Shown one piece after another: positions 1-462 of a stretch of DNA of 29,649 bases. The position numbers were made by a program, and so were the translations under genes. The first letter of the stretch is position 1; each line of letters opens with the position of its first letter. Source of the stretch: a virus (taxonomy: Duplodnaviria > Heunggongvirae > Uroviricota > Caudoviricetes); IMG/VR virus record IMGVR_UViG_649989948_000014, positions 1 through 29,649 of that record. One strand, given 5' to 3'. The notes below the pieces were generated by a model, which was not told the origin of the DNA, did not search any database, and saw only the letters and a list, made by a program, of their open reading frames with translations.

Positions 1-189
1 TGAACCGACATTCATCGCTTCACTGGCCTGTCGATATGAGTAGCCCTTATCAACAATCAGCTGTGCACATTCCAGCCTGAACTCAGGGGTGAAGGTTCGT
101 TTGGTTTTCTTGTTCATTAAGTCACCTATTTTGTGTTGTGGTGAGAATATCACCTTTCATCAGGTGGCCAAATTTAGTGTGCCACTACA
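1..189 (-). mobile_element. IS3-family insertion sequence, terminal ~189 bp including the 5' part of the OrfA transposase gene; element continues past the window start
   Basis: Minus-strand translation from an ATG near 115-117 down to position 1 reads [39 protein letters not shown], an IS3/IS911-type OrfA helix-turn-helix N-terminus; the FI reading frame is lost at ~189/190 where the minus strand reads TGTAGTGGCACAC (TG-initiated IS end). Confidence 0.6.
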
Positions 190-462
190 ATGCAGCGTCA
201 CCAGTGCCACGACCGTGACCAGAGCAGCCGTATCAATCACGGTATCCGGCTGCGCTGATACCACCTCATTTTCATGTCCGGTCAGCGCATTTTCCGGGCT
301 GACAGATGTGTCCTGACCGGCAGCGTCATCCGTGTCATCAAGCTCCTCTTCCAGCTCTGCCACACGGAGCACCAGTTCTTCTTTCGTCCCCGTCAGGCTG
401 ACATCACGGTTCAGTTGCTCACCCAGCACCTGAAGACGGGCAATCAGTTCATCTTTCGTCAT
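190..462 (-). pseudogene. FI: lambda head assembly protein FI, 3'-truncated by the IS insertion
   Basis: ORF 160..501 contains MTKDELIARLQVLGEQLNRDVSLTGTKEEL... matching lambda FI up to ...VVALVTLH, then reads into IS sequence and stops. Confidence 0.8.

Follow-up and report, generated by a model that had tools for sequence, protein, structure and literature searches.

The FI gene and its neighbourhood

The DNA analysed here, called the window, corresponds to one complete provirus record of IMG/VR with 29,649 bases, and the side lying beyond the insertion sequence (IS) at its edge was read from two complete genomes that have the same sequence. Positions 1-3400 hold, on the minus strand and read from right to left, the genes C/Nu3, D, E and FI, followed by foreign sequence. 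FI, the gene of a DNA-packaging chaperone, starts at position 462 of the minus strand (ATGACGAAAGATGAA...) and occupies positions 190-462. When aligned with FI of lambda, A1 and A19, the gene agrees with them up to nt 273, which is codon 91 of 131 (...CTGCAT), and the Pfam family Packaging_FI (PF14000) was matched with E=1.8e-31 over profile positions 1-96 of 131. The product is thus not a full-length gpFI, since the C-terminal 40 codons are gone and 273 of the 396 nt are retained; RefSeq labels the gene as 'incomplete; missing C-terminus'. Similarity to all phage records starts exactly at base 190, and bases 189 down to 177 of the minus strand read TGTAGTGGCACAC. The first-pass annotation had placed the interruption of FI after about 90 codons, which agrees with our finding that the IS adjoins the gene exactly behind codon 91. 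Reading of the open frame gives a chimeric ORF (positions 160-462, minus strand) that joins FI residues 1-91 to nine IS-derived residues (CSGTLNLAT) and then meets a stop codon.

An exact copy of this 100-aa chimeric product is called on contigs of 57 blocks of the public assembly collection. All 24 of the contigs with the FI::IS junction that were read terminate within the IS, the seven shown doing so at depths of 29, 30, 55, 127, 141 and 173 nt; such k-mer-like depths are typical of repeat-induced assembly breaks. The window itself stops inside the IS, probably because its source contig broke off in this repeat in the same way as the other contigs bearing the junction. In one piece, the FI::IS junction was found in two of 5426 complete E. 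coli genomes, those of strains MS 145-7 and TK3889. An exact-pattern scan gave no match to it among viral contigs.

Both strains carry the sequence of the window. The complete chromosome of MS 145-7 is identical to it across all 29,649 bases with the exception of one homopolymer base, and TK3889 shows 100% identity in the parts compared (positions 1-1500 and 4650-29649) and also along 1701 bases covering lom, the IS and FI. The isolates came from a human in the USA (MS 145-7) and from a calf (TK3889), and their chromosomes were assembled independently. Over 29.6 kb the window departs from MS 145-7 only at position 22286, where the two differ by a run of A6 versus A7 in the intergenic leader that separates the repressor gene from kil; this could be a sequencing error or a genuine slippage variant.

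The major capsid gene E (positions 504-1536, minus strand) is frameshifted, as judged from alignment with A19, from the Pfam Phage_cap_E match that is split across two ORFs and from the RefSeq label 'frameshifted'. The lesion consists of 7 bp duplicated in tandem (CCGGCTT x2, at approximately 1221-1234) and is lacking in the intact A19 allele, so that the frameshift in E, which had been proposed earlier as an independent lesion, is real. This duplication is present in five of the seven FI::IS contigs shown. Two metagenome contigs (L029 and L025) have the same FI::IS junction together with an intact E gene that lacks the 7 bp; L029 otherwise differs by 7 SNPs only, all distant from E, while the SNPs of L025 cluster round E, and L025 may be recombinant or chimeric. 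As these contigs combine an identical junction with an undisrupted E gene, the duplication in E probably arose after the IS and deletion event, an ordering that is read from contigs of a kind that can be chimeric. In the RefSeq record of the same sequence, pseudogene flags are present on FI, E and lom only. The immunity, replication, Red and lysis genes, described before as looking intact, are accordingly free of such flags, and so are int and xis.

The insertion sequence and its relatives

Positions 1-189 of the window (minus strand) are the left end, on the IRL and orfA side, of an IS of 1258 bp, and they match with 100% identity the end of six full-length 1258-bp copies present in MS 145-7, while phage homology stops at position 190. 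A resemblance by chance is excluded by this identity to six full copies. The terminal inverted repeat IRL (TGTAGTGGCACACTAAATTTGGCCAC) lies at positions 164-189 (minus strand) and pairs with the far end of the IS. The terminal repeats are 26 nt long, imperfect and 77% complementary (TGTAGTGG...CCACTACA). The first 39 codons of orfA, which encodes a transposase regulator with a helix-turn-helix (HTH) motif, extend from the ATG at 117-115 down to position 1 (minus strand) and run off the window. This ATG is IS position 73, in accordance with the previous reading of an OrfA N-terminus that begins 72 nt into the element. The 39-aa piece alone reaches 21 bits with the Pfam family HTH_Tnp_1, below the cut-off of 24.1, and the complete OrfA of 103 aa, taken from the full-length copies, matches the same family with E=8.8e-13. 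The orfB gene (248 aa) lies in the -1 frame relative to orfA, with a slippery A AAA AAG (A6G) sequence at IS position 333, and RefSeq annotates the transposase with a 'programmed frameshift'. OrfB contains the Pfam rve domain, the DDE core (E=6.1e-27), and the NCBIfam model NF033516 (transpos_IS3) gives 268.7 bits against a cut-off of 160.

Members of the IS3 family are marked by an orfA with an HTH motif and an orfB in the -1 frame, expressed via a site of the A AAA AAG type, and by a DDE transposase with an rve domain. Imperfect repeats of the TG...CA form, a length of about 1.2-1.5 kb and duplications of 3-4 bp upon simple insertion are also characteristic of the family. The present element has all of these traits: two ORFs linked by frameshifting, the rve domain, repeats and length of the expected kind and, at four of the five other full copies in MS 145-7 and at the insertions in RX24 and A1, 3-bp duplications. 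The earlier identification of an IS3/IS911-type element at the window edge is therefore borne out, with the specification that positions 1-189 are the orfA-side end of an IS911-like element of 1258 bp.

IS911, a studied paradigm of the IS3 family, measures about 1250 bp and transposes by a copy-out/paste-in process via an IS circle. The element shares with it the orfA-A6G-orfB layout, the TG...CA ends and the 3-bp duplications; moreover, 35 of 40 bases are alike between its IRL and that of K-12 IS911B, and 27 of 36 between its IRR and the published IRR of IS911. The body of the element is more distant: in comparison with the IS911 copy at the fec locus (the locus of K-12 IS911B), DNA identity is 65-66% over the alignable parts and OrfA identity is 54%. 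By the ISfinder rule, copies of the same element share >95% nucleotide identity. The values of 65-66% and 54% rule out that the element is IS911 itself, and the low identity of body and OrfA despite the IS911-like ends indicates an IS911-like but distinct IS3-family element. Beside fecE, MS 145-7 carries an IS911 copy (locus 12649-13815) without the IS30 and IS600 that split K-12 IS911B, the transposase of which is annotated as frameshifted nonetheless. As for nomenclature, a record labelled 'IS3-like element ISEc31 family transposase' matches the region of the IRR end at 92%, whereas RefSeq names the transposase of the element (WP_085968792.1) only 'IS3 family transposase'. No precise IS name was obtained from phage records, from NCBIfam or from source labels, which read 'IS911 transposase orfB' and 'IS602 transposase OrfB'.

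The far side of the insertion sequence and the missing segment

In MS 145-7 and TK3889 the gene order is bioA, ybhB, diguanylate cyclase, tfa, stf, lom (partial), IS, FI (partial), E (frameshifted), D, C, portal (B), W, terminase (A) and so forth. The far IS end that should exist beyond the window was found in both genomes with its matching inverted repeat; it joins lom from nt 205 onward, the first 204 nt of that gene being gone. The remainder of FI, which had been expected past the IS, is absent from this position, the flank being lom. What is left of lom amounts to 396 of 600 nt and covers positions 69-199 of the 199 positions of the Pfam Ail_Lom profile. An exact-pattern scan for the lom::IS junction gave no match among viral or metagenome contigs.

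The attL core of the prophage is an exact match to the lambda att core (GCTTTTTTATACTAA), 15 nt in length, at positions 28305-28319 (minus strand) in the interval between int and ybhC, and a copy of the attR core adjoins ybhB in MS 145-7 (position 4420 of locus L002). The presence of att cores at both ends defines a remnant of 35.9 kb at the lambda attB site (ybhC/ybhB-bio). The lambda gene order, seen in the deleted form and in the intact form of strain A19, likewise identifies a lambda-type prophage. The diguanylate cyclase, which has a sensor domain, is encoded by a cargo gene between tfa and attR (positions 5075-6406 of the MS 145-7 locus) that is also present in the A19 prophage.

In strain A19 the same site, lambda attB, is occupied by a sister prophage that lacks the deletion. 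It agrees completely with MS 145-7 in the D, C, portal and terminase proteins, and its E, FI, FII, Z, U, V, G, T, H, M, L, K, I, J and lom genes are intact. BLAST searches and alignments placed the breakpoints between 10790 and 10791 and between 22588 and 22589 of the A19 locus (L008). The loss amounts to 11,798-11,800 bp, owing to a 2-nt TG ambiguity at the lom joint, and comprises the last 123 nt of FI, twelve complete genes for head-tail joining and tails (FII-Z-U-V-G-T-H-M-L-K-I-J) and the initial 204 nt of lom. The rest of the MS 145-7 chromosome does not contain the segment, the only related sequences being homologues with 66-90% identity in two other prophages, and the 3' piece of FI had zero matches anywhere in that chromosome. 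Since the segment is missing from the whole chromosome, we regard this as a true deletion and not as a translocation or a collapsed assembly. The two other prophages are lambdoid and located at about 2.264-2.275 Mb and 2.584-2.596 Mb, and their tail genes, which are 66-90% identical to the deleted ones, could in principle recombine with the remnant or complement it. In view of these results, the previous count of two lesions in the head module has to be replaced by three lesions, the largest of which is the 11.8-kb loss of every tail gene.

The bases that flank the prophage copy of the IS are GAA next to lom and ATG next to FI, so that no target-site duplication exists in MS 145-7 or TK3889, where one had been anticipated. 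The claim that the IS is inserted into FI consequently stands in so far as the IS cuts this gene, but the unlike flanks and the presence of lom beyond the IS are not those of a simple insertion. Of the five remaining full copies in MS 145-7, four are bordered by perfect 3-bp duplications (AGT, TGT, TAG and CTT), and simple FI insertions of the same IS in which both halves of FI are kept also show them, TCA in RX24 and ACA in A1. The occurrence of duplications at most other copies and in RX24 and A1 makes their absence at the prophage copy informative. A second full copy in MS 145-7 (988564-989821) is bordered by GTA and TCT and so is without duplication as well, which implies that a further rearrangement associated with the IS took place. 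This copy was considered as the recombination partner of the prophage copy and was rejected, because the flanks do not cross-match.

Origin of the junction and comparison with known systems

A single intact IS that sits on a deletion joint without duplication is the classical mark of IS-associated deletions. We hypothesize, with a probability of about 0.88, that the intact, multi-copy IS of which window positions 1-189 are one end marks the scar of such a deletion, which affected a lambda-type prophage integrated at lambda attB. In the proposed course of events, a simple IS insertion with a 3-bp duplication would have occurred at the FI site (nt 273) or at the lom site (nt 204). It would have been followed either by a transposase-mediated adjacent deletion starting at one end of the IS, or by homologous recombination with a second copy that had inserted nearby in the same orientation. 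The outcome would be a prophage unable to make tails, without the C-terminal domain of FI and with no functional Lom, in which the 7-bp duplication in E would have appeared afterwards. Intermediates, in which the IS would still adjoin the remainder of FI at the FI site or the remainder of lom at the lom site, were found in none of the 5426 complete E. coli genomes; as no intermediate is available, either first site remains in combination with either route (adjacent deletion or two-copy recombination). An IR-like heptamer, GTGGCAC, lies within FI about 20 nt upstream of the point of insertion. It was considered as a targeting signal of the IS911 type and dropped, because it does not adjoin that point and its chance expectation is roughly 0.05.

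The window stops inside the IS and leaves the far side unseen in its own record, and in RX24 and A1 the same IS is simply inserted in FI; a simple insertion, just past which the genome that yielded the window would continue with the remainder of FI and the tail genes, might thus be envisaged. We consider it very unlikely, given that the window equals MS 145-7 over 29.6 kb except for one homopolymer base and that MS 145-7 has the deletion. Furthermore, the two of the 5426 complete genomes in which the FI::IS junction occurs both have the lom junction too, and the insertions of RX24 and A1 occupy other positions in FI. A collapse of two IS copies during assembly, with loss of the intervening 11.8 kb, deserves mention because IS repeats often break or mis-join assemblies and because the draft contigs with the junction all end inside the IS at k-mer-like depths. 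The same structure is nevertheless present in two independently assembled complete chromosomes, and a repeat collapse would leave 11.8 kb of unique sequence, which is absent from the MS 145-7 chromosome; such an artefact is extremely improbable. Hardly more credible is a deletion that arose first by another route and received the IS into its joint later, for which we found no specific support: an IS entering a joint that already existed should have produced a 3-bp duplication, as seen at the four MS 145-7 copies that keep theirs and at the two simple FI insertions, and the lack of one between GAA and ATG leads us to reject it.

A different type of explanation concerns the forces at work, namely a domestication of the prophage in which useful immunity, Red, lysis and cargo genes were kept and selection led to the inactivation of those for morphogenesis. 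The restriction of the pseudogene flags to FI, E and lom, with the other genes intact, and the persistence of the lineage with the junction in 57 blocks of public assemblies are consistent with this idea, which we nonetheless judge unlikely. The lineage is nearly identical, with 0-0.4% divergence, and this points to a recent event, in which case intact genes are expected from recency alone. The kinds of lesions are those of neutral decay, and two of 5426 complete genomes carry the lineage. The pattern of lesions therefore suits recent neutral decay equally well as domestication.

An IS-associated deletion, the reading that we prefer, has consequences mainly for annotation, and its importance outside correct annotation is small. 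The prophage is best annotated as tail-less, with an 11.8-kb IS-associated deletion, truncated FI and lom genes and a probably later frameshift in E, and a description as two point-like head lesions is inappropriate. The feature is an ordinary case of IS-mediated decay of a dead lambdoid prophage, the broken genes of which are already RefSeq pseudogenes. It provides, however modest, a clean natural case of an IS3-family element that lacks a duplication owing to a linked deletion, and the A19 sister prophage at the same site permits mapping of the deletion at the base level. It also calls for caution, in that a window ending within an IS cannot be taken for a simple insertion.

Insertions of the same IS occur at several sites in other strains as well. 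Within the 396 nt of FI, three independent sites were found, at about nt 129 (RX24), nt 273 (the window) and about nt 308 (A1). RX24 (locus 6154-7408) and A1 (locus 5004-6261) encode the identical transposase WP_085968792.1. Further insertions lie in FII in an O111 clade, close to Z in strain 19KM2326N, and within or beside J/lom in O121 and additional strains. All of the prophage insertions seen have the late-operon orientation, in a sample of sites that is biased, since the search joins same-strand pieces only and ranks by coverage. It is doubtful that the IS prefers the head-tail joining and tail-tip regions of lambdoid prophages as targets and acts there as a recurrent grounding agent; this preference is probably not true, considering the biased sampling and the fact that prophage genes are tolerant targets.

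Deletions associated with IS3-family elements have been followed in the long-term evolution experiment with E. coli, where a duplication was made in all 69 plain IS moves and in none of the 14 deletion-linked moves of IS150, a member of the IS3 family; every one of these 14 could be traced to an IS that first inserted and then caused the loss of adjacent DNA (PMC11708052). The prophage copy resembles these 'IS-del' events of IS150 in that an IS3-family element is situated on the joint of a large deletion without duplication (PMC11708052). It differs from them in that the IS150 events were tracked over time with their intermediates, and in that the present element is of a different IS3 subgroup. 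At the level of the whole prophage, the remnant is similar to the cryptic lambdoid prophages of K-12 (DLP12, Rac and Qin), which have lost morphogenesis genes and are interrupted by IS elements, and in its late and nin regions it has genes of the DLP12 type, namely essD, rrrD, quuD, ybcK, emrE and a porin gene similar to nmpC. In contrast to DLP12, Rac and Qin, it is far less decayed and occupies the lambda attB site and not argU, with att cores, int and xis, immunity, replication, Red and lysis genes, terminase, portal, protease and D all apparently intact.
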